Shown here in pieces: positions 2,040-63,190 of a DNA stretch of 64,000 nt (the stretch's first letter is position 1; every line of letters starts with the position of its first letter). A model generated the notes under the pieces. It did no database searches, had not been told where the DNA came from, and saw only the letters and a program-made list of their open reading frames with translations. The stretch comes from Stegostoma tigrinum (taxonomy: Eukaryota). The position numbers were made by a program, and so were the translations under genes. The stretch is taken from positions 30,132,001-30,196,000 of the forward strand of contig NC_081377.1 in assembly GCF_030684315.1 (NCBI RefSeq), given 5' to 3'.

Positions 2040-3000
2040 AAAAACTGAGAGGACTGCGGATGCTGTAAATCAGAAACAAAATCAGAAGTCGCCGGAAAAG
2101 CTCAGCAGGTCTGGCAGAATCTGTGAAGAGAAATCAGAGTTAACGTTTCGAGTCCGATGACCCTTCCTCAGAACTCATGGTAGCTAGGAAAATGTCAGTT
2201 TATATGCAGAAGATAGGTGGTAAGAAGTAAACAATATATGTGGGAGTAGAGCCCAAAGAGAGAGAGAAGAGCAGTTGGACAGACGAAGGATTGGATAACG
2301 GTCAGGCTCAGAGGGTGAATAGCTGTTAATGGAGACTGTAATGGCTTACAATGGATTGTGTGCAATACAGGCTGTGAGATAACCAGGCCTGGTGCGTGTG
2401 TGGAGATGGTGGTTAAGACATGGGAGCCCTAAAGTTATTAAACTCGATACTGAAAGGGTCCCCAAGCAGAAAATGAGTGTTGTTTGTTCTTTCAGCTTTG
2501 CTGGGGTACTGCAGCAAGCCTGAGACACAGATGTTGGCCAGGGAACAGGGTGGTGCGCTAAAGTGGCAGGAAACTGGAAGCTCTGCCTCATTTTAGCAGG
2601 CAGAGTGTGTGTTCTGCGAGATGGTCAATCTACCCTTCGTTTCTGCAACATAGAGGAGACCATATTTGAGCGCAACAACTACAGTAGACCAGATTGTGCA
2701 GATAAAGTGCTGCTTCACCTGGAAGGTACGTTTGTCCCCTTGGATACTAGAGAGGGAGGAAAGTAATTGGCAGGTGTTACACCTTTGGCAGTTGCAGGGG
2801 AAGGTGTAGTGGGGCTGTTGGAGGCAGGGTGGACCAGGGTGTCCTAGAAGGAGTGGTCCCTGCAGAAGGTGGACAAGGGAGGGGAGGGGAACATGTCTGG
2901 TGGTGGCACCTCGCTGGAGATGGTGGAAATGGCAGCTAATGATCTTCTGGATGTGGATGCTGATGAGACATTACGTAAGGACAAGGGGAACCCCTACGCT
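2040..3000 (-). mobile_element. Degenerate Penelope-like element 3' part (GIY-YIG region plus terminal repeat with hammerhead core)
   Basis: The reverse complement of 2780-2950 resembles the PLE segment 'PSPPLSAFRRDHSL...TFPCN' seen intact at 16640-16750; the terminal repeat is at 2040-2176. Confidence 0.7.
2137..2176 (-). ncRNA. Minimal type I hammerhead ribozyme motif
   Basis: Minus strand GAGTT-CTGAGGA-A-GGGTC(ATCG)GACTC-GAAA-CG-TT-AACTC: 5-bp stem I, CUGANGA, 5-bp stem II, GAAA, loopless palindromic stem III. Confidence 0.75.
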
Positions 3001-5124
3001 ATGGTTGACTGGAAGAGCAGAAGCCTTGATTAAGGTATGTGACCAGGCACAGGGTAGGGGACTAGCTGTGGAAGTACAGCCTGTTTTGTAATACTTGCCT
3101 TCAACGAAGGTTGCATTTTACCTTTTCTCAGTAGTTGCTATGCCCCTGATTTTCTCTCATATCATGTGACCCAGATTATCAACTCAACAAATTTGTGGCC
3201 TCACCCTACACCAATACTGATACAATGGTGTATTAGGGTTGTCAACTCTCCAAGATTGTCCCAGAGTCAGCAGCAATTAAACATTAACATCCTAGGCGAT
3301 GGAGTGAGAAGCCAAGGAGAAAAATCATAGTAGTACTTAAAAATCTCTCACTTTCTTTGAATACTTTTTTTTGACTTTATAAAAATGGAATATTGGCTAC
3401 TTGACAGGGCAGTATTGCTGAAGGCAGGAAGTCATGTGATTAAACCTCCAGGAATATGTCCAGAATTAGCAATCCGATATGTAATGGATGTACTACATGA
3501 TACATCAGCAATGCAGGGAAATCAAGTTAAAAGTACATCATAATTTTAAAGTCTTTTTTAAAAAAAATCTAAAAATAATAAGCTGGCATCAGAAGAGGCA
3601 ATCCTGAAGCTGTCAGGTTATTGGACAAACCTAACTAGTTCACATGTTAAGACATCCTTACCTAATTCGGTGTGCAGTATTCAGTATCTAGACCTACAGT
3701 GTAGTTGACCTTTAACTATCCTCTGAAGTGACAGAGCTGAAACGTTATTCTGGGACATCTAGCTCTGCTCCTATCCTGGTAATGAACATGAGAAGGCAAT
3801 GGCAACAAACAGAAGCACTGTCAGCGTCAAATGGTTCTGAAGATTATTCCTATTTTCCTGAAAATATTAACCTGGTTTCTATTTCCACAGATGCTGCAAG
3901 GACCTATGGAGTTTTTAACAGTAGTTTGTTTTTATTTATTAGCATGTTTGATCATTTTGGTATTTTCTTGGGTCATACAGATTATTTGAAAAGCCAAATA
4001 ACTTGGCTTGCTTGCCAAAGTACTGGAAACACAAGGACCATGAGGGAGAATGAATTATTGCAAGGATAATTAGGGTTTGGTGATGAGTGTCAGCCTTGCT
4101 CAACAATCATCTTGTTAAAAAAAAATGGAAGAAACTTCACTACAACTTTTCCATCACAAGGACTGTCAGCTTCCACCTTCGCAATATCACTCATCTTCTC
4201 AAAACTCGCTATCACTCATCTCCAACTGTTACGTTAGTTCTTCTGCTGCTGAAATTTTCACACTTTATAAATATCAGCTCATCCAAAGCTCTGCTGACCC
4301 ACATCCTCCTCCTTGAACTGCAATGGCTCACGAAACTTTAGCATCTTTAATTTTTCATGCTTATTCTCAGATTTAAATAGACCCAGATGGAAACAGGGGA
4401 ACCGTGGTGCAGCTAGTTTGGGAACTACAGGCCCAAAGTCTTATCGTCTTCCAAGTACACTACATTTAATATGTCTGAACTTGCTTACATACTCAAATGT
4501 TATTTTCAGAAAAAAATCTAAATAAACCAATATTAACTGCTTCTGCCAATTCCACATGAATCTATTTTACGAATTGTCCACAAGACTCAACTGAATTTTT
4601 GAAATGGGTTTAAAATTCAGTTGCTTCAAGCACAGGCCATGACCTCTGGTTCTATTTTTATGAACAATGGGGAAAACAGCTTGTCACTGTTTACAGCACT
4701 TGGATACTTGTGGTTTGTATGGCTCAGTCACTACACCATGAGAACTTATTTCATGTCAGGTGCAAACAGCCTGGCTATATATTTCCTGTTTTTTTATATC
4801 TTTCAGACAGACACACCAAACTGGGTGCTTGTGGCTTTCAGTAGGAAATGCTAACAAAGCTAATTTTCTACAGTTATAATGCCTAAGGCCCTCTTGCGGG
4901 ACAGTGGCAGTGTCCCCAGACTGGGAGGAACAGGTTCAAGTCCCACCTGCTCAAGCGGTGTAGAACATTGCTGACAGTGAAGGACATAGCAGTGCATTCC
5001 AAGTCAGGATCATGTACATCTTGAAAAGCAACCTGCAAGCGGTGGTGTCCTTGCACTAGTTAATGGAGATCAAGGTTTTAGAAAGTGCTGTTGAAGAAGC
5101 CTTGAGGAGTTGCTGCACTGCAGT

Positions 5125-10399: not shown

Positions 10400-10815
10400 G
10401 AAAACAAAATAAAAATGTGGCATCCACGGAGACAAAGCAAGCTAACGTTTCGAGACGAAATAAAGTCCAGAGGTCAGAGATGGTGGGAACTGCAAATGCT
10501 GGACAATCCGAGATAACAAAGTGTGGAGCTGGATGAACACAGCAGGTCAAGCAGCATCTTAGGAGCAAAAAAGATTTTCTGATTAAGGGTCTAGGCCCGA
10601 AACGTCAGCTTTTGTGCTCCTAAGATGCTGCTTGGCCTGCTGTGTTCATCCAGCTCCACGCTTTGTTATCTCTAAAGTCTAGAGATCTCTGATGAAGAAG
10701 CTACAGTCGAGACGTTAGCTTGCTTTCTCTCCACGGATGCTGCCTGACCCGCTCTAATCTCCAGCATTTGTTTTGTTTCAGCTCATAGATAGCACCTGCA
10801 GTAATTTGCTTCCTA
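10400..10815. mobile_element. Nested palindromic PLE-derived elements (inner 10473-10672 with 12-bp TSD inside an outer fold-back element)
   Basis: Inner arms gataacaaagtgtggagctggatgaacacagc / gctgtgttcatccagctccacgctttgttatc; TSD taaagtccagag 10461-10472 / taaagtctagag 10673-10684; outer arms gcatccacggagacaaagcaagctaacgt / acgttagcttgctttctctccacggatgc. Confidence 0.8.
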
Positions 10816-11816: not shown

Positions 11817-12872
11817 TTTCAATAAATGTTTATTCTTGTTTAGCAAAACATTTATTAAAGCAGTGTGGCATAAATATGAAGAACTCAGATATAGACAATT
11901 CCGAAAACAATGAATGATAAACTTAACTGACAGCTTCCATCTCTGCATCTTCTGTAAACTTGAGCTCATCTAAAACTGCACTTCATATTCTAGCTTATAC
12001 CAAGTCCTGGTCATCATTATTCCAGTGTTCATGGACCTGCAATGCCTTGACTTTAAAATTCTCAACCTTATGTTTAAAGTTTTTCCATTGCCTCACCACT
12101 TCCCTACCTCTAAACTCTTCCATAAAACCACAGTGCTCTGAGATCTGTGTGCACCTCAAATTCTGCTTTTATGTACTTTCACAATTATGTCTTTAGCTGG
12201 AATTCCCTCACAATCACACAACTATCTCTCTTTGCTCCTCAAAACCTGTTTCTCTAAGCTTTTGGTCAACTGTCACAATAACCAAAGGAGCTTAGTTTTA
12301 TTGATTAAATCACTACCAACATAAACACACATTATTTTCTGGTGTATTATCTCACCTGCAGACTTTATTCTGAACTAAAAAGGAGGTACGGTGTTAAATC
12401 AACATTCACCCACAACTCCAAAAGCAACATTCATGCTCTCTGGCTTGATTGGTAGGTACTAATTGACACCAATTAGCTTCATAGAGTGATGCAGAAAGAG
12501 ACCATTCAGCCCATCATGCCTGTGCTGGGTCCTTGAAAGAACTGTCCAATTAGGCCCACTCTGAAGCTCTTTGCGGACCATTCTGTCAAATGTTCCCCCT
12601 CATTTATCCATTTTGTTTTTAAAAAGTGCTTCCATCACACTTTTCAGGCAGTGCACCTCCATTCATAACTTAATGTAAAACATTGTTTCTTCAAGCTTTG
12701 TCCAGTTCAATTTAGAGATATTGGCAAAAGACTCAATCTGACAAAATTTTGAATTACAAAATTTCAATAAATGTTTATTCTTGTTTAGCAAAACATTTAT
12801 TAAAGCAGTGTGGCATAAATATGAAGAACTCATATATAGACAATTCCGAAAACAATGAATGATAAACTTAAC
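11817..12872 (+). repeat. 111-bp direct repeat pair (11817-11927 and 12762-12872), 1 mismatch
   Basis: tttcaataaatgtttattcttgtttagcaaaacatttatt...gataaacttaac occurs twice, offset 945; each copy has two minus-strand AATAAA hexamers. Confidence 0.95.
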
Positions 12873-14385: not shown

Positions 14386-14520
14386 CGATGGCAATGTGGA
14401 CAGACAACAACGGTTGGTTGATTGTCAGTGCCCAGATGTGGAGGCTATGCATAGTTTTCACGCCATCAATTAATAGGAGCGATTGTTTAACCTGATTAAA
14501 ATCCATTCCTTTTGGAGTTC
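14386..14520 (-). CDS. SLC30A2: SLC30A2 exon 7 (135 nt)
   Basis: tgacag|GA...ATCG|gtaag; (G)TPKGMDFNQVKQSLLLIDGVKTMHSLHIWALTINQPLLSVHIAI. Confidence 0.95.
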
Positions 14521-14769
14521 CTGTCAAAATGCAGTGCTGAGCTTCAGGAGGAATCGTGTTTGTCAATGAACATATTGTACTCTTATTTTCAGTCTTATAG
14601 TTTCCCATAACAACAAATGAATATCTCCAAATCTCTTGCTTTCTTGTCTTAGTTCTTCTTTTCTATGCGAAGACTGCTTCTTAACTGACTTCAACTCACT
14701 CCATGTCTGAAATTCAAACCCTGTCTCCCACACATTAGCAGAATGCAAAGGAAGATACATGTCATCCCC

Positions 14770-17633
14770 GATAACAGTGTGGAGCTGGATGAACACAGCA
14801 GGACAAGCAGCATCTCAGGAGCACAAAAGCTGACATTTCGGGCCTAGACCCTTCATCAGAGAGGGAGATGGGGAGAGGGAACTGGAATAAATAGGGAGAG
14901 AGGGGGAGGGGGACCGAAGATGGAGAGAAAACAAGATAGGTAAAGAGGAGAGTATAGGTGAGGAGGTAGGGAGGGGATAGGTCAGTCCAGGGAAGATGGA
15001 CAGGTCAAGGAGGTGGGATGAGGTGGTAGGTAGGAAATGGAGGTGCGGCTTGAGGTGGGAGGAAGGGATGGGTGAGAGGAAGAACAGGTTAGGGAAGCAG
15101 AGACACGCTGGGCTGGTTTTGGGATGCAGTGGTGGGTGGGGAAGAACTGGGCTGGTTTTGGGATGCAGTGGGGGAAGGGGAGATTTTGAAGCTTGTGAAG
15201 TCCACATTGATACCATTGGGCTGCAGGGTTCCCAAGTGGAATATGAGTTGCTGTTCCTGCAACCTTCGGGTGGCATCATTGTGGCACTGCAGGAGGCCCA
15301 TGATGCACATGTCGTCTGAGGAATGGGAGGGGGAGTTGAAATGGTTTGCGACTGGGAGGTGCAGTTGTTTGTTGCGAACCAAGCAGAGGTGTTCTGTAAA
15401 GTGGTCCCCAAGCATCCGCTTGGTTTCCCCAATGTAGAGGGAGCCACACCGGGTGCAATTGATACGATATAACACATTGGCAGATGTGCAGGTGATCATC
15501 TGCTTGATATGGAAGGTCATCTTGGGGCCTGGATAGGGGTGAGGGAGGTGGTGGGGGGGCAAGTGTAGCACTTCCTGCGGTTGCAGGGGAAGGTGCCGGG
15601 TGTGGTGGTGTTGGAGGGGAGTGTGGAGTGGACATGGGAGTCGCAGAGAGAGTGGTCTCTCCGGAAGGCAGACAAGGGTGGGGATGGAAAAATAGCTTGG
15701 GTGGTGGGGTTGGATTGTAGATGGCGGAAGTGTCGGAGAATGATGCGTTGTATCCGGAGGTTGGTGGGGTGGTATGTGAGAATGAGGGGGATCCTCTGGG
15801 GGCGGTTGTGGCAGGGGCAGGGTGTGAGGGATGTGTTGCGGGAAATGCGGGAGATGTGGTCAAGGGCGTTCTCGACCACTGCGGGGGGAAAGTTGCAGTC
15901 CTTGAAGAACGTGGACATCTGGGATGTATGGGAGTGGAATGCCTCATCCTGGGAGCAGATGCAGCGGAGGCGGAGGAATTGGGAATAGGGGATGGAAGTT
16001 TTTCCAGGAGGGTGGGTGGGAGGAGGTGTATTCTAGGTAGCTGTGGGAGTCAGTGGGCTTGAAATGGACATCAGTTTCTACCTCGTTACCTGAGATGGAG
16101 ACTGAGAGGTCCAGGAAAGGAAGGGATGTGTTGGAGATGGCCCAGGTGAACTTGAGGTTGGTGTGGAAGGTGTTGGTAAAGTGGATGAACTGTTCGAGCT
16201 CCTCTGGGGAGCATGAGGCGGTGCCGATACAGTCATCAATGTAACGGAGGAAGAGGTGGGGTTTCAAGCCCACTGACTCCCACAGCTGCCTAGAATACAC
16301 CTCCTCCCAACCACCCTCCTGCAAAAATTCCATCCCCTATTCCCAATTCCTCCGCCTCCGCCGCATCTGCTCCCAGAATGAGGCATTCCACTCCCATACA
16401 TCCCAGATGTCCACATTCTTCAAGGACCACAACTTTCCCCCCGCAGTGGTCGAGAACACCCTTGACCGCGTCTCCCGCATTTCCCGCAACACATCCTTCA
16501 CACCCCGCCCCCACCACAACCGCCCCCAGAGGATCCCCCTCATTCTCACAGACCACCCCACCAACCTCCGGATACAACGTATCGTCCTCCGACACTTCTG
16601 CCATCTACAATCCAACCCCACCACCCAAGCTATTTTTCCATCCCCACCCTTGTCTGCCTTCCGGAGAGACCACTCTCTCCGCGACTCCCATGTCCGCTCC
16701 ACACTCCCCTCCAACCCCAACACACCCGGCACCTTCCCCTGCAACCGCAGGAAGTGCTACACTTGCCCCCACACCTCCTCCCTCACCCCCATCCCAGGCC
16801 CCAAGATGACCTTCCATATCCAGCGGATGTTCACCTGCACATCTGCCAATGTGTTATATTGTATCCACTGCACCTGGAGTGGCTTTCTCTACATTGGGGA
16901 TACCAAGTGGAGGCTTGGGGGCTGCTTTACAGAACACCTCCGCTCGGTTCGCAATAAACAACTGCACCTCCCAGTCGCGAACCATTTCAACTCCCCCTCC
17001 CATTCCTCAGACGACATGTGCATCATGGGTCTCCTGCAGTGCCACAATGATGCCACCTGAAGGTTGCAGAAACAGCGACTCATATTCTGCTTGGGAACCT
17101 TGCAGCCCAATGGTATCAATGTGGACTTCACAAGCTTCAAAATCTCCCCTTCCCCCACTGCATCCCAAAACCAGCCCAGTTCTTCCCCACCCCCCACTGC
17201 ATCACAAAACCAGCCCAGCTCGTCCCCTCCCCCCACTGCATCCCAAAACCAGCCCAGTATGTCTCTGCTTCCCTAACCTGTTCTTCCTCTCACCCATCCC
17301 TTCCTCCCACCTCAAGCCGCACCTCCATTTCCTACCTACCACCTCATCCCGCCTCCTTGACCTGTCCATCTTCCCTGGACTGACCTATCCCCTCCCTACC
17401 TCCTCACCGACACTCTCCTCTCCACCTATCTTGTTTTCTCTCCATCTTCGGTCCGCCTCCCCCTCTCTCCCTATTTATTTCAGAACCCTCTCTCCATCCC
17501 CCTCTCTGATGAAGGGTCTAGGCCCGAAACATCAGCTTTTGTGCTCCTGAGATGCTGCTTGTCCTGCTGTGTTCATCCAGCTCCAGACTTTGTTATCTTG
17601 GATTCTCCAGCAACTTCGGTTCCCATTATCACT
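14770..17633. mobile_element. Head-to-head (fold-back) Penelope-like retroelement with RT C-terminus and GIY-YIG endonuclease; 16-bp TSD
   Basis: Left arm (minus) has RT 'FLRYIDDCIG' and 'LPFLDL'. Right arm ORF 16407-17060 has 'CNRRKCYTC' and 'NVLYCIHC...LYIGDT...EH...VANHFN'. TSD gatacatgtcatcccc at 14754-14769 and 17634-17649. Confidence 0.92.
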
Positions 17634-18189
17634 GATACATGTCATCCCCACTGGGGAGCTTTAGTCCTCAGCATTCCTCTCACTTCTTTCTCCTTCCACA
17701 CCACCACTGTCAACACTCTTCTCATAACTCTTCAAAATCAATGCAACCATCTTAATTAATTTTTGCTATACTCAACAGGCTTGATTTAGTGTGCTGTTCA
17801 GATTTCAGGTGACAGCACATCTTAAAGAGAACTTTGCTCAACATAAATTATTTGTTCTATGCACAGCATATTTCCAATTGCTGCATAAACACACATCTTA
17901 GAAACCATTTGCACGGCCTCCTCACTGCTGTAAATATTCCTTCATAGTTATTCTACCTCTTTCCATTTAACTCAAAGACTGACAATGTAATTTCCTACAG
18001 AAACTGATTCTTCCCTTACTCATTTACTCCTCATACCTTTCCAAATTCATAGTCTTCAGAAAGCCAAGGAAGATCATTCTTGATTTGCTTCAGATGTTCC
18101 CATGCTTTCTTCACTCTGTGGCATTCTGCATCTTTATATAACTTTTCTCAGCAGATCATCATGTTAATTTCCTGAACTTCACTGAATTG

Positions 18190-19150: not shown

Positions 19151-19163
19151 GTTAATTACTTGC

Positions 19164-19269
19164 CTTCCATCAGAATGCAGAGAACGTCCCTCAGGATAGA
19201 GATGGTTGTCCCCAGAACAAGAATGGAAAACAGGAAGGTGCAGATTGGATCCACTATCTTATATTCAGG
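19164..19269 (-). CDS. SLC30A2: SLC30A2 exon 6 (106 nt), GC donor
   Basis: atttag|CCT; [35 protein letters not shown]; ends GAAG|gcaagt. Confidence 0.93.
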
Positions 19270-21691: not shown

Positions 21692-21842
21692 CAGAGATAG
21701 TAGGAACTGCAGATGCTGGAGAATTTGAGATAACAAGGTGTAGAGCTGGATGGACACAGTAGGCCAAGCAGCATCTGAGGAGCAGGAATGCTGACGTTTC
21801 GGGCCTAGACCCTTATTCAGACCCTTCATCCAGCTCTATATC
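21692..21842 (-). mobile_element. Short PLE terminal-repeat insertion with small inverted end and 14-bp TSD
   Basis: tgggcaaattatct at 21678-21691 and 21843-21856; contains gctgacgtttcgggcctagaccctt (hammerhead stem II/GAAA, reverse complement). Confidence 0.8.
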
Positions 21843-22480: not shown

Positions 22481-22634
22481 ACAATATTGACTGCAACAGC
22501 ACCTCCTGAGGTGATTACCATGGCGCCACCTTTAATCTCGTACTGCCCAGAAATGAGTCGCTCAACCGCCAGATAGACAAGCACACCGGTCACCACCCAG
22601 ATGGACAGCACAGAGACCAGAGCTCCGAGAATCT
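22481..22634 (-). CDS. SLC30A2: SLC30A2 exon 4 (154 nt)
   Basis: ctgaag|AG...ATTGT|gtgagt; (E)[50 protein letters not shown]. Confidence 0.95.
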
Positions 22635-24627
22635 CTTCAGGACACCAGGAGAAGAGCAAAGTTCATTCATATAAAATAATTTGTCAGAACGTCGTACAGG
22701 AAATCTCAAATTTACAATACTAGTAGATAGCTATTGCATCTCAACTAAATGTAATGTACGGAAGTACAAACATCTCAGATTTAACAAAATCCTTCCAGAA
22801 ACCAGATCGAACTTAACATGCCAGCATGCCTTGAGAAGTTAAGGATCAGATTTCTGCAGTAACCTCTGTACGGGACTACGGAATTACTGTGGTTTCATGG
22901 TATTCATCGAAACATGAGCAAAAGCAAGCCTTTCAGCACCTGGAACCTGCTGTGCTATTCCACACAATGGCTGATCATCTGCCTCAATGCAACTTCTCAC
23001 TTATTTCACAGGATATGGGCATTTAAGTTTAATTTTGAGCCCACATCTCCAGAGCACTGATTTGCACATCTGGTTTGCTAGTCCAGTAACATTACCACTG
23101 CATTAACATCTACTACTCAATCTTGTCTTTATTGGCTAGGCCAACATAAATTGCCCACCCCTGATTGGCCAGAGGGCAGTTTTAAGTAATTGCTGTGGGT
23201 CTGGAGCCAAATGTTGGCCAGACCAGGAGAGGATGGCCATTTTCTTCCCCAAAGGAAGAAATGAATCAGATGTGTCTTTTCCCAACAATCAACGTTTTTA
23301 TGGTCAACCTTAAATTGTTAAGTACAGACTTGTTTTTATTGACAAAAGATTGCATCATCTACCAAGGTGTCTTTTGAAGCCAGAACATTACCTGGATTTC
23401 TAGATTAACAGTCTAGTGAGAATACCATTACATCATTGCCTCCACATACCCCTCGATGTCATTATTGTTTGAAATTTATTGCTTCTCTTGAACAAACTCA
23501 ATTACTGAGTTTCTGCTGTCCTCTGGGGATACAGCATTCCAAAGATTCACTATCCTCTGGGTAAAGAAGTTCCTCATCTCAATCCTAAACAGCTTGGCCC
23601 TTATTTTGAGTGAGGTCTCCCCCAAACCTCAAGCCAGTTTTAGACCATCCTACATCCACTCCCAACCGAGAAAAAGATCCTTTGTGCATCCACTCCATCT
23701 AATCTAAATATTGATACCAAAGAGGTCCAGACTACTACTGCATAAACATCTGTCATTGTCTGCACCAAGCTAGAAAATCAAGCTGATTAAAAGTGGTTAA
23801 TGATATCAAGACTGGAAAACCACAAGGCTACAGTTGGGACACATTTTAGATAAAGGAGTGGACCTGGAGAAATGCCACAAAAACAAACCTTTAAGATGTT
23901 ACATGATGAGGAACTTCTGCAATGCAATCCTGCTGATAATGATATCGAAGCCTACTGGTTACAGAACAGGAAAAGAGATGCCAATGACAGATAATCACTC
24001 ACATGGTCTCAGACACACACATATTGGGAGTCTAGCTCAGTTTTCAGCAACAAACGCACAATACTGTCCCTGCCCTCAGCAAATAGCACATAAAACCTCC
24101 AGAAGCAAAACTAGTCTTCATAATCAGCTTCAGCAGGAAGAATAAAAACAAAAATATTTTAAATCAAATCGGATTTGACACTTAAAGCAGATAATTCACA
24201 ACACTCAAAATGAACCTTACCATCTCAATTTCAACTCATTTAGGATTGATCATTAATGGTTTCTCTATATCAATCTCCTGTTTCTTTACCTATGCCTAGA
24301 TCAACCTCTTTTTGCTCTACACCATTATCAATTTTAGTCATTTTATTTCCTGTATCATTGGAATTTCTATTCATTCTTTGCTATCCTTCACTTGGTCACC
24401 TTACCCTTTCTTTGCACTGATATAAAAATTGTTATATTTCTAACAACTTCCAGTTCTGACAAATGACCATCAACCTAAAGATTTGTTTTTTTCTCTCTCT
24501 TCTCAGGTCACCAATTAAGACCAAGAGTTTCCCATGTTTCCAGGATTCACAACATTTTACTTTTCAATTTCTTTTGCAATTTGGCCCACAGGGATCATGG
24601 GCAGCTTTGAAAAGGAAAAGCACCCAT

Positions 24628-25511
24628 TTTTCAAGGACCACAACTTCGGCCTCACAGTGGTCGAGAACACCCTTGACCGTGTCGCCCGCAACTCATTCCT
24701 CACACCTCTTCCCCGCAATAACACCTGCCCCCACACCTCCCGCCTCACCCCCATCCCAGGTCCCAAGAAGACTTTCCACATCAAGCAGACGTTCACGTCA
24801 CCTATGCTAATGTGGTATACTGTATCCGCTTTTCCAGATGGGCCTCCTCTACAATCGGGGAAACCAAGCAGAGGCTTGGGGACCGCTTTGCAGAACACCT
24901 ATGCTCAGTTTGCACCTCCCAGTCATGAACCATTTCAACTCCCCCTCCCATTCCTCAGACGACATGTCTATCCTGGGCCTCCGGCAGTGCCACAATGATG
25001 CCACCTGATGAGTTGCAGGAACAGCAACTCATATTCTGCTTGGGAACCCTGCAGTCCAATGGTATCAATGTGGACTTCACAAGCTTCAAAATCTCCCCTC
25101 CCCCTACCTCATCCCAAAATCAGCACAGCTTGTCCCTGCCTCCCTAACCTGTCTTTCCTCCCACCTATCCCGTCCTCTCACCTCAGGCCCCACCCCCATC
25201 TCCTAACTACTAACCTCATCCCGCCCCCTTGACCTGTCCGTCCTCCCTGGACCGACCTATCTCCTCCTTTACTCCCCACCTACACTCACCTTTACTGGCT
25301 CCAACTCTGCCTCTTTGACCTGTCTGTCTCCTCTCCACCTATCTTCTCCTCTATCCATCTTCAATCTGCCTCCCCCTCTCTACCTATTTATTTCAGAACC
25401 CCCTTCCCCATCTCTATTTCTAAAGAAGGGTCTAGGCCCGAAATGTCAGCCTTCCTGCTCATCTGATGCTGCTTGGCTGGCTGTGTTCATTCAGCTCCAC
25501 ACCTTGTTATC
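24628..25511 (+). mobile_element. Internally deleted Penelope-like element 3' part
   Basis: Colinear with the 16420-17597 arm (FKDHNF..VVENTLDRV..., TCPHTSRLTPIPGPKKTFHIKQ); ends at accttgttatc. Confidence 0.85.
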
Positions 25512-26549: not shown

Positions 26550-29094
26550 CAGACGATAGATAACATTTTACAAGGTTTAATCCAGGTCCCCATTTATCTG
26601 GTTGACATGCTAATAACAGGGAAGACCAATATAGAGCAATTAGAGAACTTTGAAATAGTCCTTAGATGTTTCTCCCAGATAGGTAAATGTCTTAGAAGGG
26701 AAAAATGTGTGTTCCAGGCACTCTAAGTGACCTACTTGGGTTACAGAGTCAACAAAACTGGGTTATACATTTTGCAGGATAAAGTGAGGACAATCAAAGG
26801 AGCCCCAGCTCCCATGCCTGTACCGGAGCTTGATGAATTTATTATGGCAAGTTCATTCGTAACGTGGCCTTCATCCTGGCACACTTACACCTGTTATTGA
26901 CAAAGGGTCAGCCTTATAAATGGTGTCATAGCCCAAATGTAGGCAAGTAAAGAAGCAGCTATCATCTATGGTGTTGGCCCACTATGATCCCAAGCAAGAT
27001 CTGGTGCTGACATGTGGTGCTTCCCTGTACAGTATCAGGATAACGTTGGCACACAGATGGACCATTGGAGAGGAACACCCAATAGCGTACGGTTCCTGAA
27101 CTTCGGCTGATGCAGTGTGCAAATACACAAAGAAGAAGAAGGAAGGTTTAGCAGTGAGAAAATACCACCACTATCCTTATGGACGTAAATTTGTAATAGT
27201 AACAGACCACAAACCCCTGCTAGGTTTACTGGACAAGGCCGTGCTGCCCATGCTTCAGGTCAAATCCAGTGATGGGCTCTCATTCTAATTGCACACAATT
27301 ACAAGTTGGAACACCATCTGAGAGTCCAAGTAACAAATGTGAATGCATTGAGCCACCTCCTGCTGGCAGATGCACCACTGGTGGTGTCACCACTCGAAGA
27401 GTCCATTCTAGTTTTAAACTTCACGGACTCCCTTCTTATCATCACTGACAATATCACACTGTGGACACAAAGAGATCAAGTCCTGGCAAAACTGAAATAG
27501 TTGGTGGTGATGGAGAAACAAATGGGCGGTCACATTAGAATCAAAACCTTCCAGGACCTGGTGAGACCAGATCTCCATAGAGGACAGCATATTATTACGG
27601 GGAGTAACAGTGTTTGTCCTGAGTAAAGACTGGCTGAACTCAAACAGGGTTATCCAGGGATTTCAAAAATGAAAATGTTGGTGAGAAGTTATGTCTGGTT
27701 GCCAGAATTGGATGCAGATATAGCCCTATTGGTGGGGCAGTACCAGGGTGCCAACAAGGTCAAAAATTACCACAAATTTGTGCCAATGACAGGATATACC
27801 CTGGACTCAGTTACACATTGACTACACTGGTCCTTTCATGTGTTCAACATTCTTATTCATTGTGGATGCCCACAGAAGGTGATTGGACATGCATTGAGTT
27901 CATTTGTCAAACACGGGGGAAGACAACAGAAAAACTACATGTATCTTTTGCAATGCACAGTCTTCCTGGAAGTGCCAGTCACAGATAACGAGCCATCAGT
28001 TACCAGCAAAGAATTTGAGTATTTTCTAAAGTCAAACGGCATTCAGCATATAAGCACAGCTCCAACCCATTCATCTTTCAGAGGTCTGGCAGAAAGAGCA
28101 ATCCAAATTTTGAAAGCAGGCTTAAAGAAGCAGCCTGTAGCTTCACTCGATAACAAGTTGTCCAGATTCCTTTCTGATTATCAGGCCTCCCCTCACGTGA
28201 CTAGTGATAGCTCCAGCAGAGCTGCCAATGAAGAGAACACTCCGCACCAGATTAAATCTGAACTTCCTGGATCGGGGGGGGGGGGGGGGGGGGGGGGGTG
28301 GGGTGGTGGTGATGGTGGTGGTGTGGGGGGTGAGGGGAATGTGGTGTGAAACGGCATCAGGAAAGCCAATGCAGGACACAAGACTCCTCCTCTAAGCAAG
28401 GGACATAGATTGCTTCAGGGGATGAATTTGGTTCTGAAAGATGGAAATGGGTAAGGGGCATGGTCAATGCGAGGTCAGGTCCCTTGGTGTACAAAGTTTG
28501 GGTAGGTGAAGCAGTGCTGCACAAGTATGAAGAGCACATGAAAACTGCAAAGGGGGCAGGAGCAAAACATCCCCAACCCCTCAAAACAGCCGGAAGACTG
28601 TCAGGACACAGAGGTTCTCACCCTCCATCTAGCATCAAAGAAACTTTGGAATCTGAGATGGACGTGGCAGATGTCACATCTTCAATACCTTTACTGCCTG
28701 AAGTGGAGGATGAACTTCTTCTGAGACACTCTGGGCACATAGGATAGGCAATGGTCCAGTACACATGCCTGTAACTGAGGCGGAACTGGAGGAACTAGAC
28801 CTGGTGCAAAAATTTTCCAGGAGAGGCTGCAAGTCTCTGGACTTATACAGGGAGAGATGTAATGGCTGTAGCAAGGTCGGCCAGGTCGATCTCATAGGAT
28901 ATGAGTTCTTTGATTGGAGCTATTAACCTGGTCCAACCAGGCAGCCATGGCTGACGGCTATAAACAGGAGTGTCAGAGGTTCTGTTCACTCTGAAACTTA
29001 GCTCTAAGGAAGGCCAGCCCAGTGTCAAATACTGCGCACATGTAAATAAAGAGTGACTTGGTGACAGGATACCAGCCTCTGCCCAGTTATTTCA
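26550..29094 (+). mobile_element. 5'-truncated, degenerate Ty3/Gypsy LTR retrotransposon (RT end, RNase H, integrase, PPT, 3' LTR)
   Basis: RNase H-like 'FVIVTDHKPLLGL' near 27190; integrase 'VTDNEPSVTSKEFEYFLKSNGIQHISTAPTHSSFRGLAERAIQILK'; domain order RT-RH-IN; PPT agggagaga then TG at 28858. Confidence 0.85.
28858..29094 (+). repeat. 3' LTR of the Gypsy element
   Basis: Starts tgtaat right after the PPT and ends ttatttca; internal tataaa at about 28959 and aataaa at about 29045. Confidence 0.75.
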
Positions 29095-30794: not shown

Positions 30795-31008
30795 TCTAAA
30801 CAAAAAAAACTGCAGATGCTGAAAATCCAAAACAAAAACAAAAATAGCTGGAGAAACTCAGCAGGTTTGGCAACATCTATGGACAGAAAACCGAGTTAAT
30901 AGTTTTGGTCCAGTAATCCCTTTTCAGGATTAAGCAGTACACAAAATGTTAACTCTATTTTCTCTCCACAAATGCTGTCAGAGCTGCTGGGTTTCTCCAG
31001 CAATTTGA
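30795..31008. mobile_element. Palindromic PLE-derived short element (old)
   Basis: Arms gctggagaaactcagcag...gagttaa / ttaactc...ctgctgggtttctccagc. Confidence 0.7.
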
Positions 31009-41084: not shown

Positions 41085-42055
41085 TGCTGAAGATCTGAAA
41101 CAAAACCAGAAATTGCTGGTAAAGCTCAGCAGGCGTGGCAGCATCTCTGGGAAGAAAACAGTTAACGTTTTGAGTCTGGTTTACTCTTCATCAGAACTGA
41201 GCAGCTCAGAGAATGTGGTATTTCTGCTGAAGATGAGTTTGGGGAATGGGGGATGGGGGAGAGATGAGCAGATAGGTGGAGTCAAAGCCCAGGGAAAAAT
41301 ATATGAAAGGGGTGTCAGATGAGGGAAAGTGAGATGTTGTTCTTTGAGCATTGACAGCAACTGAAATGTTTGCATGGTATCCCTGTGATGCAACACTTCA
41401 GACACAGGCCTGCAGCAGTATTCTAGCTAGCCTCAGTCCAAGCTCAAAGAACAGCATCTCATCCTCTGCTTGGGGTCCCTGCAGCCTCTAGAGCTCAGAG
41501 AAAAATTTCAGAGAATGAGTCTGTCTTCCTGTTATTTCACCTACGTCCACATGCAGTCCTGTCATGACATGGATTGCTTTCAGCATAGCCTTTCTATTCT
41601 CAACTACTGTCTGCTCTCATTATCTATTTATTCTGAGGAAGGGCCACTGGGCCCAAAATGTTAACTCTGTTTTTCCCTTCAATGATGCTGCCAGACCTGC
41701 TGAGCTTTTCCAGTAACTTTGTTTTTGTTCCTGATTTACAGCCTCTGCAGTTCTTTCGGTTTTTATCTATTTATTCAAGTTCTCTTCTGTACTGGCTTAC
41801 TATCAATAATTTCCTCATTTGCCCACCCCTTTCATATACATGTCTCTCTCTCTCTGTCTCTCTGGGTTTCATCTCCATCTATCTGCTCACCTCTCCCCAC
41901 TCTGTCCGTACCCCATCTTCAGCAGGAATACGACTTTTTCCTTGCTGCTGTTAGCTCTGATGAGTAGTCACCAGATTCAAAATGTTAACTTCATTTTCTC
42001 CCCACAGATGCTGCAGCCCAGCTGAGTTTCATCAGCAGTTTCTGTTTTCTTGTTT
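41085..42055. mobile_element. Compound fold-back PLE relic with three decayed hammerhead-like cores
   Basis: 41090-41320 is an inverted repeat of about 41820-42055; cores at 41159-41199 (-), about 41630-41668 (+) and about 41955-41990 (+). Confidence 0.7.
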
Positions 42056-45235: not shown

Positions 45236-46602
45236 TCAGGAGATATTGCTCACTAAGTAACCACTTTTTATATTTTGTTGTACTGAAGATGATCTTGTTA
45301 ATCCCACTTGCTAGACCAGAAACCTGGTTTGCAATGTGACTGCAGTGTCTCACATCTCATAGACCTGGAGAGCATTTGTTATTTTTATACCAGATAGCTG
45401 CAAAATCCCTTGACAGGGCCATTTGTCAACAATGACACAAACATATCTGCACTTTCCAGAGGTGAAACTACAGCCAATAACGGAAGTCTATAAAACCAGA
45501 AGTGGGAAAAGTATGACCAGTCAATAAGTTTAACCGAACAATTGACAGTATAATGAAATTTTTACAGTGATTGGTGAAGTGAGCAATGACCAAGTAAGAA
45601 CTCTCCTGTTAACCCATTGTTGTTCAATGTGCAATTAACTTATAAATACTGGTTGCACCTGAGTGAGGCAAAATCTGGCTAAGCCATAAAAGGAAGCACT
45701 GCATCAGATTGACCAGCTCTGTATTAAGGAAGGAATGGGTGCTGCCATCAACATTCACCCTTCTGGAAATAGCCACTACCTTCACCACTCTCCCTGGTCA
45801 CTGTCTCAGACTGAACCCGTGCTGGGTGAGCAGGACTTAGAGTGCAACTTTCCCTCCTCATGAGAGAGTGGTGGGGAGAAGGGGGACTAAGTAGGTGAGT
45901 TGGCTATGACAAGGTACTCTACACCTTCTTACCTCCTCACTAATTAGGTTCTAGGCATGAAAATGTGTGATAACCTTCTTGACCACTCACTAATCAAGGC
46001 CTTTACATTGTCAATAATTGACCATCTGAAGGCCTCAATTCGCCAGAGGAGAAAAGGTAGCTAGTGAGAAACCGGAGTGACCTGACTGCCAGGTGATGGA
46101 GGAAGAGGGGCTGGGGAGTACTCCATTTACTCAAATCTAGCAGGCATAGATGTGGTCCAAAGCAGTGGGCTCTGACAGTCATTTCCCTGCTCTTACATCT
46201 GAGCTCCACATTCTGGCCAGCCTTGGCCCACAAGAACAGGATAAAATTTATTGAACTTCATCCTGCTGGATCCCTGAGGAAATTTCTTTCACCAGTGGTC
46301 CTTAAGATCCAGAAACTGCTGGGCCTCTGTCCAGCAGCTTCTTCTAGCCCAAGACACCAGTGTCAAGGCTTGCAATAGACTGAGAAAGCTCGTTCTCTCT
46401 TAACATGTTTGCCTCCACACTTCCTTTTTTTGACCAAGGGAAAATTGCACTCCTAGAGTGAGAGTTAGGGTTCAGGCACCAGAATTTCGGATGCTGTCTA
46501 GTTTATGGAAATACAAAGTGAGAGGTTGTTCAGGAGATATTGCTCACTAAATAACCACTTTTTATATTTTGTTGTACTGAAGATGATCTTGTTAATCCCA
46601 CT
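45236..46602 (+). repeat. 73-bp direct repeat pair (45236-45308 and 46530-46602), 1 mismatch
   Basis: tcaggagatattgctcactaa(g/a)taaccactttttatattttgttgtactgaagatgatcttgttaatcccact occurs twice, offset 1294. Confidence 0.95.
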
Positions 46603-53524: not shown

Positions 53525-54571
53525 CTACGGAAACACAAGGAGAACATACATGTCAGAAGAACAGACAGTTTTAAATAATTCACTATCCTGTAATAGGTAG
53601 AATAGGGTCTGAAATAGGAAATCAGTTCTATTCTGCAAACATTTCTGCAATTGGCAAAAGATGGTCAGGTTTTGCTACATCTTAGTACCAGTATGGGCCC
53701 CAGAGCAGAAAGGATCAGGTACGTTTCTAGAGGATGTGAATGTAGTCACTTCTAACTCAATAAAAGTTAACAATAGCTACCTATGACAGACTGACTAGGG
53801 ATGGCCATGATTCAGTGAGTAGCACGTTGATTCCCTAGAAGGGCCGGGGTTCAAATCTGTTCTAGGCAACTGAACAAAAATCTATTCTGACATTCTGGTG
53901 CAGTACTCAAGGAGAGCTGCATTGTCAGAGGTGCTGACCTTCAGATGTGCCTGAAGCCCTGCCATTGTTTCAATAGAAGAACAATAGGATAGTTCGCCTT
54001 GATATCCAGTTACTGCTGATTAATTTAAGTGAATGAAAATATTACCTGGTCTTTATCACATTTTAGTTTCTGAGAACTTTCTGTGCATTAGTTATTTGTT
54101 GTATTTCCTGTGATATAACAGTGACTGCACTTTACTAGTATGGAATTTCTGTAACACACTTCGTGATGTTCTTAGATCATGAAAGCTGCAAAAGAAATGC
54201 AAGTCCTTCCTGGCCCAGTGACTCACAGCAATTAAAGGACAGACAAGTTGAAGCAAAAATAATGCCAATGCTTTCAAACTAAAATTTAACAAGAAACTTG
54301 TTTCTCTTGCTTATAGAATAATATACAATCTGAGTAACTAGGTAATAAGTTAGCATTTTGAAAATGTTATGGCATAGCATTTTAACAATTGTAATACACC
54401 CTTGATACGAGCCCTGAAGTGAAATCAACAGCCAATTCTTCTCTGTAGGACAGAAGTAGTTTATGCCCGAGAAGGAAAGCCAGTAACCCTGGTGAATGAG
54501 ACATACTGGTCCAATTCATCCAATATACTTCAATATAGAGGACTGATACAGCCAGTACATTCATTTCCAAT

Positions 54572-54838
54572 TAAAAACCAAAAGAACTGCAGATGCTGTA
54601 AATCAGGAACAAAAATGGAAGTTTGCTGGAAGAGCTCAGCAGGCCTGGCAGCATCTGTGAAGAAAGGATCGGAGTTATTGTTTCAGGTCCACTGACCCTC
54701 CCACAAAACTGGGCTTTCCCTAAACTTCCTCAGTTCCAAGGAAGGGTCACCAGAACTGAAACATTAACATTGATTTTTTTTCTTCACAGGTGCTGCCGGA
54801 CCTGCTGAGCTTTTCCAACAACTTCTGTTTTTGTTCCT
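54572..54838. mobile_element. Palindromic PLE-derived element (second family) with decayed hammerhead cores
   Basis: Arms aggaacaaaaatggaagtttgctggaagagctcagcagg / cctgctgagcttttccaacaacttctgtttttgttcct; likely TSD tacattcattt at 54556 and 54838. Confidence 0.8.
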
Positions 54839-61869: not shown

Positions 61870-63190
61870 TTTATGGTGGTGAACAATTAAACAACTCACA
61901 GGAGGAGGACACTCTACAAGTATCCCCATTCTCAGTGAAGGAAGAAGCCTGACACATCATTGCAAGAGATAAGGCTGAAGCATCCACAGCAATCTTCAGC
62001 CAGAAGTAATGAATGGATGATTCATTTTGGCCTCCTCCAGTGGTTCCCCAGCATTATAGATACCAGTCTTCAGTCAATTCAGTTCACTCCACATGATATC
62101 AAGAAAGGAATAGAGACACTGGATACTACAAATGTATGGGACCTGACAAATTCTGGCAGTAATACTGAGGATTTATGCTACAGAACTTGCTGCTCCCCTC
62201 ACCAAGCCATCCCATTATAGTTACAAAACTGGTATCCACTCAACAATGTGGAAAATTGCCCACATATATCCTGTACACAAAAAGCCAGACAAATCCAACC
62301 CAGCCAAATACCACCCCATCATTCTAGTCTCCATTACTAGTAAAGTGATGGAAGCTGTCATCAACAATGCTATTCAGCATCACCTGCTCGCCAATAACCT
62401 GCTCACGAACACTCAGTTTGGGCTCCACCAGGGCCACTCAGCTCCTGATCTCATTACAACCTCAGTTCAAACATGCACAAAAGAGCTGGATTCCAGAGGT
62501 AAAGTGAGAGTGACAGCCTTGACATCAAAGCTGCAATGTAGCATCAAGGAGCCTTAGCAAAACTGGAATCAATGGATTCACACTGTCACATGGGAAGATC
62601 GTTCTGATTTTTGGAGGGTATCTCAGCTCCAGGACATCTCGGCAGGAGTTTCTCAGGGCAAAATCCTAGGCCCAACCATCTTCAGCTGCTTGGTCAACAA
62701 CCTCCCCTCCATCATAAGAATGTTCACTAGCGATTGAACGATGTTCAGTACAATTGCTACTCCACAGATATTGTAGCAGATCATGTTCAAGAATGATTCA
62801 TGCCACATAAGTGCCAGGCTATGATCATCACCAATCTAACAACCAACCCCTTGACATTCAATGGTGTTACCATCATTGTATCCCCACTGTCAGCATCCTG
62901 GGGCTTATCATTGACCAAAAACACTGCTGGACTCACCGCTTAAACACTGTGGCTACAACAACAAGTTAGAGGTTAGGTATACTGCAGTGAGTAACTCATC
63001 TCCTCAATCCCCAACGCTGCCACATTCTACACCATCACTTGCAAATTCCTTTCTAAGCCAGTCACTATCCTAGATCAAAGCCCTGGAATTCCCTTTTTAA
63101 GGGTATTGTGGGTTCTACCTACTTCACACGGTCTGCAGTGGTTCACTGCAGAACCACCTTCTCAAGGGAAATTAGGGAATGGCAATAATT
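61870..63190 (+). mobile_element. Degenerate LINE (CR1/L2 group) ORF2 RT region
   Basis: WKIAHIYPVHKKPDKSNPAKYHPIILVSITSKVMEAVIN...LLTNTQFG; 'GVSQGKILGPTIFS' near 62645. Confidence 0.85.

Follow-up and report, generated by a model that had tools for sequence, protein, structure and literature searches.

How does a retroelement come to lie in an intron as two long copies of itself facing each other, and does the resulting inverted repeat matter to the gene that hosts it? Both questions are raised by a 2,864-nt unit (target site duplications, TSDs, excluded) in intron 6 of an SLC30A2-like gene of the shark Stegostoma tigrinum. The unit lies within a 64,000-nt stretch of contig NC_081377.1, analysed as a whole and called the window here. 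A preliminary description had presented the arrangement as unusual and proposed several consequences for the host. We find that the unit is a dead Penelope-like element (PLE) insertion, consisting of two 5'-truncated copies placed head to head within one pair of TSDs. The arrangement itself did not prove unusual, since it is the structure published as typical of PLE insertions and recurs in four of the nine units of the family in the window. The length of the arms is the only unusual feature relative to the other units of the window.

Structure of the insertion

Self-BLAST of the window returned a single long inverted match (14764-16064 against 17603-16262), which together with the alignment of the arms confirmed all coordinates given in the preliminary description (Table 1). 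The left arm reads in element-sense on the minus strand, the same sense as the host pre-mRNA, and both 3' ends face outward. The left copy measures 1,492 nt and the right one 1,372 nt, its 36-nt tail included. Neither arm is a plain copy of the other, because the left one has 197 additional nucleotides at its 5' side and the right one 36 at its 3' side. The left arm terminates at a tail-less site that is a general end of the family, as many contigs stop at 17597/17598 with unrelated flanks (353 and 902 in run X1, 915 in run X2). The TSD, reported earlier as perfect, is indeed exact, and neither strand of the window holds another occurrence of it. It encloses the whole unit, which supports the earlier claim of a single insertion event. 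The 197-nt spacer does hold the RT motif previously placed there: its minus-strand translation reads ...PHLFLRYIDD..., with YIDD at 16232-16243. Likewise, the right-arm frame (16245-17060) is open up to the TGA at 17058-17060.

Table 1. Positions, within the 64-kb window, of the parts of the intron 6 unit, the exons around it and the fold-back units of the family
Feature	Position	Strand	Remarks
SLC30A2-like exon 7, ZT_dimer domain	14386..14520	-	peptide 100% identical to Stegostoma tigrinum isoforms
Left TSD, 16 nt	14754..14769	.	exact copy of 17634-17649; unique in window
Left arm: RT C-terminal part, linker C-x4-C-x2-C, GIY-YIG, 3' region, pLTR	14770..16064	-	
Minimal hammerhead core, left arm; CpG-type change in helix III palindrome	14832..14859	-	pattern match
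Unpaired spacer, 197 nt: extra 5' part of left copy	16065..16261	-	
Microhomology at head-to-head joint, 3 nt, compatible with both copies	16262..16264	.	
Right arm, 5'-truncated, element-sense on plus	16262..17597	+	
Hammerhead core, right arm	17506..17533	+	pattern match
PLE tail, 36 nt, right copy only	17598..17633	+	such tails in accessible text of PMC8557442, PMC11167929
Right TSD, 16 nt	17634..17649	.	match in related species' contig begins exactly here
SLC30A2-like exon 6	19164..19269	-	followed by GC donor AAG/GCAAGT
Fold-back	10476-10672		TSD about 12-15 nt with mismatches
Fold-back	14770-17633		TSD 16 nt exact
Fold-back	21692-21842		TSD 14 nt exact
Fold-back, split by later insertion	29321 to about 29600		TSD 14 nt, 2 mismatches, by eye

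Several features go beyond the preliminary description: the tail, the microhomology at the joint, two frameshifts in the left arm (one nucleotide gained near 15997 and one lost near 15532), and three further fold-backs in the window. The microhomology is placed where it is because contigs of the family match the left copy up to 16264; 225, 213 and 49 contigs in three DNA runs track it through this position before diverging. The lysine before PHLF is conserved in both homologues, in agreement with the microhomology. The central joint contains no palindrome.

Contigs were compared from four of the 23 runs listed, over a stretch that left out the left arm, the left junction and exon 7. In two samples of the same species, one of which may be the source of the assembly, single-copy contigs cover this stretch without interruption from 17587, a position 47 nt within the element, up to its end. 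A contig of a related species starts to match at the right TSD, after 183 other letters; it is likely the empty site, as judged from where the match begins. The summed depth of the element exceeds that of the flank by about five orders of magnitude, with approximately 350,000 contigs in X1 and 330,000 in X2, figures that are a sign of a very large family and not a copy number.

Identity of the element

The translated pieces of both arms share 74-88% identity with two shark proteins, P0122 and P0123, over the part that extends from YIDD through GIY-YIG, and the longer homologues contain PF00078, PF26215 and PF01541. Pfam detected GIY-YIG on the left arm under the cut-off (E 0.041), and its scan of the right-arm frame and the spacer gave no match. 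As this direct Pfam evidence is weak, the assignment to PLEs, already made in the preliminary description, is based on homologues and motifs. The unit resembles EN+ PLEs in 1) what reads as an RT followed by a C-terminal GIY-YIG domain in one ORF; 2) a putative minimal hammerhead in the pLTR; and 3) an inverted 5'-truncated copy with a one-sided tail of 30-40 nt and TSDs of variable length.

The RT-EN linker of both arms carries C-x4-C-x2-C. A CX2-5CxxC linker is given for Neptune and Nematis, and as missing from Penelope/Poseidon, in the accessible text of Craig et al. (PMC8557442). The motif by itself points to Neptune/Nematis, and the Penelope/Poseidon clade was discarded because both arms carry it. 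As a further EN+ PLE character, the left arm keeps the C-x2-C inside a CCHH motif and the later histidines, and the right arm lost one cysteine (16878) by a private change. Functional ORFs are ruled out, since both arms are truncated and broken. Foldback DNA transposons and MITEs have equal terminal inverted repeats and TSDs of fixed length. This class was also rejected: the ends of the unit differ by 36 nt, TSDs of the family in the window span 8-16 nt, and the arms are RT/EN coding.

By pattern match, both arms contain a hammerhead core with a bulged base, a palindromic loopless helix III and a CpG-type change in that helix. The decayed ribozyme noticed earlier near 14830-14860 is the core of the left arm. 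Rfam returned no match at gathering score in the whole window. A single minimal motif of such type showed no cleavage in vitro in the accessible text of PMC4209133. The idea that the ribozyme cuts the pre-mRNA was accordingly dismissed, the motif being single and minimal, altered in helix III and paired with the antisense arm.

Other units and repeats in the window

The arms of the intron 6 unit are long relative to those of the other family units in the window. Read by eye, every fold-back has a tail on exactly one arm (4/4), which is the arm reaching further 5' in two cases and the shorter arm in the other two, counts that come from a small sample, in which one unit has an arm no longer than about 25 nt and another a TSD missed by the script. 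The script found no TSD for the units at 24.6, 29.3 and 39.5 kb, and the one at 29.3 kb was later seen by eye past the secondary insertion. In the 10.5-kb unit, one variant is common to both arms and occurs in no other copy of the window. This unit is enclosed by a second fold-back, which belongs to another hammerhead-like family and has its arms at 10420-10453 and 10707-10740.

The 5' ends of the family cluster just before the hammerhead core, with loose ends before 17505 in 618 contigs of X1 and 628 of X2, and four copies of the window (10578, 11284, 21821 and 39517) begin at most 2 nt from family coordinate 17505. This position may correspond to the 5' end of the transcript, where the RT would run off. 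Among the 15 shown of 981 joints, other opposite-strand joints of the family lie at 16353/17205 (two DNA runs) and at 16155/16942 and 16194/17505 (run X5). The latter two belong to other copies of the family and reach a depth of about 270-290 in X5. As this run is RNA-like, their presence suggests transcription of some fold-backs at other loci.

The window holds other repeats. A second, older PLE family is found at 2040-3006 (-), with related ends at 30798-31006, 41631-41764 and 54570-54838; it has a decayed GIY-YIG frame (3006-2428) and a match to the hammerhead core pattern at 2171, and its units at 30.8 and 54.6 kb are self-inverted. Intron 2 contains a decayed integrase-core fragment (27822-28349, +; Pfam rve, E 0.0019, under the cut-off), and a LINE-type RT fragment lies at 62147-62557 (+; RVT_1, E 5.5e-6). 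There are also a 111-nt near-perfect direct repeat (11817-11927 and 12762-12872, spaced by 945 nt) and a 73-nt inverted repeat (45236-45308 and 46530-46602, spaced by 1.2 kb).

Common source and age of the arms

Over 1,294 aligned columns, the arms differ by 71-75 substitutions, depending on the alignment, which corresponds to 94-94.5% identity. Of these differences, roughly one third to 40% fall at CpG sites (24/71 or 32/75, by alignment), so that the earlier estimate by eye, over 90% identity with many differences at CpG, was sound. Differences affect 28% of the CpG columns (24/86) against 3.9% of the others (47/1,208). In addition, a 39-nt unit is repeated twice in the left arm and three times in the right one. 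Over 300 residue positions, the right arm has 18 private changes, including the stop and the lost CCHH cysteine, and the left arm 13. At nine of the 300, the two arms have in common a change, mostly outside CpG, that is absent from two mutually agreeing homologues. The closest copy in the window, at 55.8 kb, is 7.1-7.5% divergent from the two arms, which over the same region differ from one another by 5.4%, and at five sites and one indel in approximately 390 nt the arms jointly differ from that copy and from the outgroups. These comparisons support the derivation of both arms from one source. The single template proposed before thus gains backing, and the argument offered for it was weak, because the copy at 24.6 kb against which the shared variants had been set is about 18% away. 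One RNA molecule, two transcripts of one locus, or early gene conversion would leave patterns that sequence alone does not separate.

The divergence between the arms (5.5%, or 3.9% outside CpG columns) can be compared with that of the flank between this species and the related one (6.1%, 155/2,523). The differences are not clustered and we found no sign that the arms were homogenised, the longest identical run being 92 for an expectation of 84 (P = 0.30). These values fit arms that were identical at birth, an insertion that followed the split from the related species, and neutral decay since then. Apparently, the arms diverged at the neutral rate, and on this measure the insertion is not young. 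There is no A>G bias among the differences between arms (A>G 12, G>A 8).

The host gene and the predicted duplex

By tblastn, SLC30A2-like proteins of Stegostoma tigrinum match all eight coding exons, which are spread over the minus strand between 32697 and 13341. The exon map confirms the placement of the unit in intron 6 (19163 to 14521, about 4.64 kb), of which it occupies 62%, and the end of the left arm is about 250 nt from the acceptor of exon 7, as had been stated. The intron had also been said to have a weak GC donor. It does have a GC donor, whose weakness was overstated: compared with the consensus (A/C)AG/GT(A/G)AGT it has a mismatch at +2 only, as GC donors usually do (PMC2490688, in its accessible part), and it is used in a spliced contig. 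This contig (1,040 nt, depth 223) comes from run X5, which we take as RNA solely because it holds it; none of the listed runs carries an RNA label, which in itself says nothing for or against. In the contig, exon 5 is joined to exon 6, and the match to the compared stretch ends at 19163, the GC donor. Exon 7 probably follows in the other 642 letters of the contig. In all three annotated isoforms seen, exon 6 is joined to exon 7, reading MEGTPKG. X5 represents one sample, and a minor isoform would be compatible with its data; over the unique part of the intron, its cover leaves 12 of 30 bins empty, to which we give no weight. Elsewhere in the gene, two family copies in opposite orientations (21692-21821, -, and 24625-25511, +) flank exon 4 (about 22486-22640). 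The annotated isoform X3 (P0004) is without exon 4, possibly through pairing across the introns or as annotation noise.

A long hairpin in the pre-mRNA, as proposed in the preliminary description, holds as a prediction: the duplex would comprise 1,223 Watson-Crick pairs, 23 GU pairs and 48 mismatches over 1.3 kb, with 12 perfect runs of at least 30 bp, the longest of 91. The intron is therefore likely, given this pairing, to fold into a long duplex. Intronic inverted Alu pairs are known for their role in editing, and A-to-I editing is plausible for intronic inverted repeats at large. By analogy, the duplex may well be edited like any intronic inverted pair, and such editing, if present, would be ordinary. 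The change spectrum of X5 (A>G 16, T>C 33, C>T 30, G>A 16) is similar to that of the DNA runs, such as X1 (17, 48, 55 and 31, respectively); it is dominated by other copies of the family and hence says nothing about this locus.

The DNA fragility suggested earlier should be lowered, not abolished. In yeast, according to the available portion of PMC10164571, rearrangements at inverted repeats decrease about 15-fold at 94% identity and about 20-fold with a 200-bp spacer, and the repeats become potent again when the single-stranded DNA is long. By extension from these effects, fragility at the shark unit would be damped and still possible.

Origin of the head-to-head arrangement

The pattern of an inverted 5'-truncated copy, a 30-40-bp tail at one end and a TSD is documented for PLEs in what is accessible of PMC8557442 and PMC3846280; Arkhipova et al. 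describe a like structure in which the TSD measures 9 bp and the tail 31 bp (PMC3846280). The formation of the inverted structures is left undefined in the accessible text of Craig 2021 (PMC8557442). Frangieh et al. purified a PLE protein of a lizard, for which dimerisation is predicted; it nicks and extends both target strands and uses two start sites bounding the tail (PMC11167929, accessible part). We consider it probable that the shark unit arose by priming at two nicks from one source, with joining by microhomology, and that it has been neutral for the host gene. The process would involve 1) nicking of both strands by the GIY-YIG protein, 16 nt apart; 2) priming by the top-strand end at the tail-less start site, from which 1,492 nt would be copied; 3) priming by the bottom-strand end 36 nt further 3', from which 1,372 nt would be copied; 4) annealing of the two cDNA 3' ends over 3 nt, followed by fill-in; and 5) later divergence of the arms by ordinary mutation, fastest at CpG.

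Two other origins can be set against priming at two nicks. The unit could be a fold-back produced during assembly or library preparation, given that assembly is known to be difficult at inverted PLE structures (PMC8557442, accessible text) and that none of the listed contigs was seen to span the central joint at 16261/16262. This is hardly credible for arms that differ at more than 70 sites, in the number of repeat units and in their 3' ends, inside an exact 16-nt TSD that encloses the unit, with a right junction bridged at single-copy depth in two samples. A real insertion could also have formed by self-priming, one cDNA or antisense template folding back at the 3-nt match to copy itself, after which the endonuclease would trim one end and so leave the tail on one side. 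Both ideas are in print, self-priming in Arkhipova 2013 (PMC3846280) and resolution by the endonuclease in Craig 2021 (PMC8557442), as far as the accessible texts go. The arms would then be identical at birth, which would explain the variants they share, and the 3-nt match is compatible with a fold-back with a loop of 197 nt. Yet the right arm, which would be the copy, has 36 nt that its left template lacks, so that an extra trimming step is needed. Moreover, long and short arms carry the tail equally often (two of the four units each), the joint has no palindrome, and the in vitro data attribute the tail to two RT start sites. We thus regard self-priming as unlikely.

The neutrality that accompanies priming at two nicks has its own alternative, in which the hairpin regulates ZnT2 and was retained for this reason. 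It could act by altering the splicing of exons 6 and 7, by causing hyper-edited transcripts to stay in the nucleus, or through endo-siRNA. The circumstances are suggestive: a predicted duplex of 1.3 kb with a dozen long perfect runs, taking up most of the intron (62%) at 250 nt from the acceptor and with a GC donor, in a gene that is expressed and with an insertion found in two samples. Against regulation stand arms whose divergence is neutral-like and without sign of homogenisation, a GC donor that is otherwise consensus and in use, and annotated isoforms that are normal at the junction of exons 6 and 7. Furthermore, both arms lie within a single intron, and no exon is looped out as a result. 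A regulatory role therefore seems very improbable.

Comparison with known systems

Canonical EN+ PLE units such as Pen2a_Av (PMC3846280 and PMC8557442, in their accessible parts) also have head-to-head copies within a TSD, a tail of 30-40 nt at one end, GIY-YIG after the RT and a pLTR that contains a hammerhead. Their inverted copy corresponds to a pLTR of approximately 200 bp, whereas here it spans 1.3 kb; in contrast with them, both copies are truncated here, without the full ORF, the upstream pLTR or a palindrome at the joint. The lizard element PAc (Poseidon, Anolis carolinensis) likewise has two 3' end points past the hammerhead that bound the tail. Both target strands were extended in vitro for PAc, as would have occurred for the shark unit; the joining of two cDNAs is not shown in the accessible text of that paper (PMC11167929). 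PAc belongs to the Penelope/Poseidon clade, which lacks the CX2-5CxxC linker of the shark element, and it prefers AT-rich targets, whereas the 16-nt target here is 50% AT and the other TSDs of the window are 53-77% AT.

The literature search, which left most subscription journals uncovered, returned nothing on the present locus or on PLE fold-backs of sharks. In L1 twin priming, two nicks in the target prime two cDNAs, which are joined by microhomology and end up within a single TSD. Because the second cDNA is primed at an internal position, the inverted segment is not a duplicate of the 3' segment. In the shark unit, on the contrary, both cDNAs would start at the 3' end and overlap by 1.3 kb. 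An inversion of the L1 type was excluded on this basis, since the two arms have 1,294 columns in common and each extends to the 3' end. Inverted Alu pairs, whose instability is treated in the accessible part of PMC10164571, likewise place a long imperfect inverted repeat in a pre-mRNA, whereas the shark unit results from one insertion and is four times longer.

Implications for the family

The value of this locus is mainly mechanistic and modest; on its own, it is the scar of a dead transposon with a shape already described. If the duplex altered the splicing of the zinc transporter, it would be a lineage-specific regulatory change, and nothing here points that way. What the unit adds is a set of shared and private variants, a microhomology at the joint and unequal ends, which favour priming at two nicks over a simple fold-back. 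We tentatively suggest, and would not yet count on it, that long fold-backs are fossils of a single dimeric RNP, in which each subunit took one target strand and one start site on the same source RNA. This would account for both the presence of exactly one tailed arm and the private variants common to the two arms. If so, shark genomes would offer a very large natural data set on how the inverted ends of PLEs are formed, and the divergence between arms would date insertions, as paired LTRs do.
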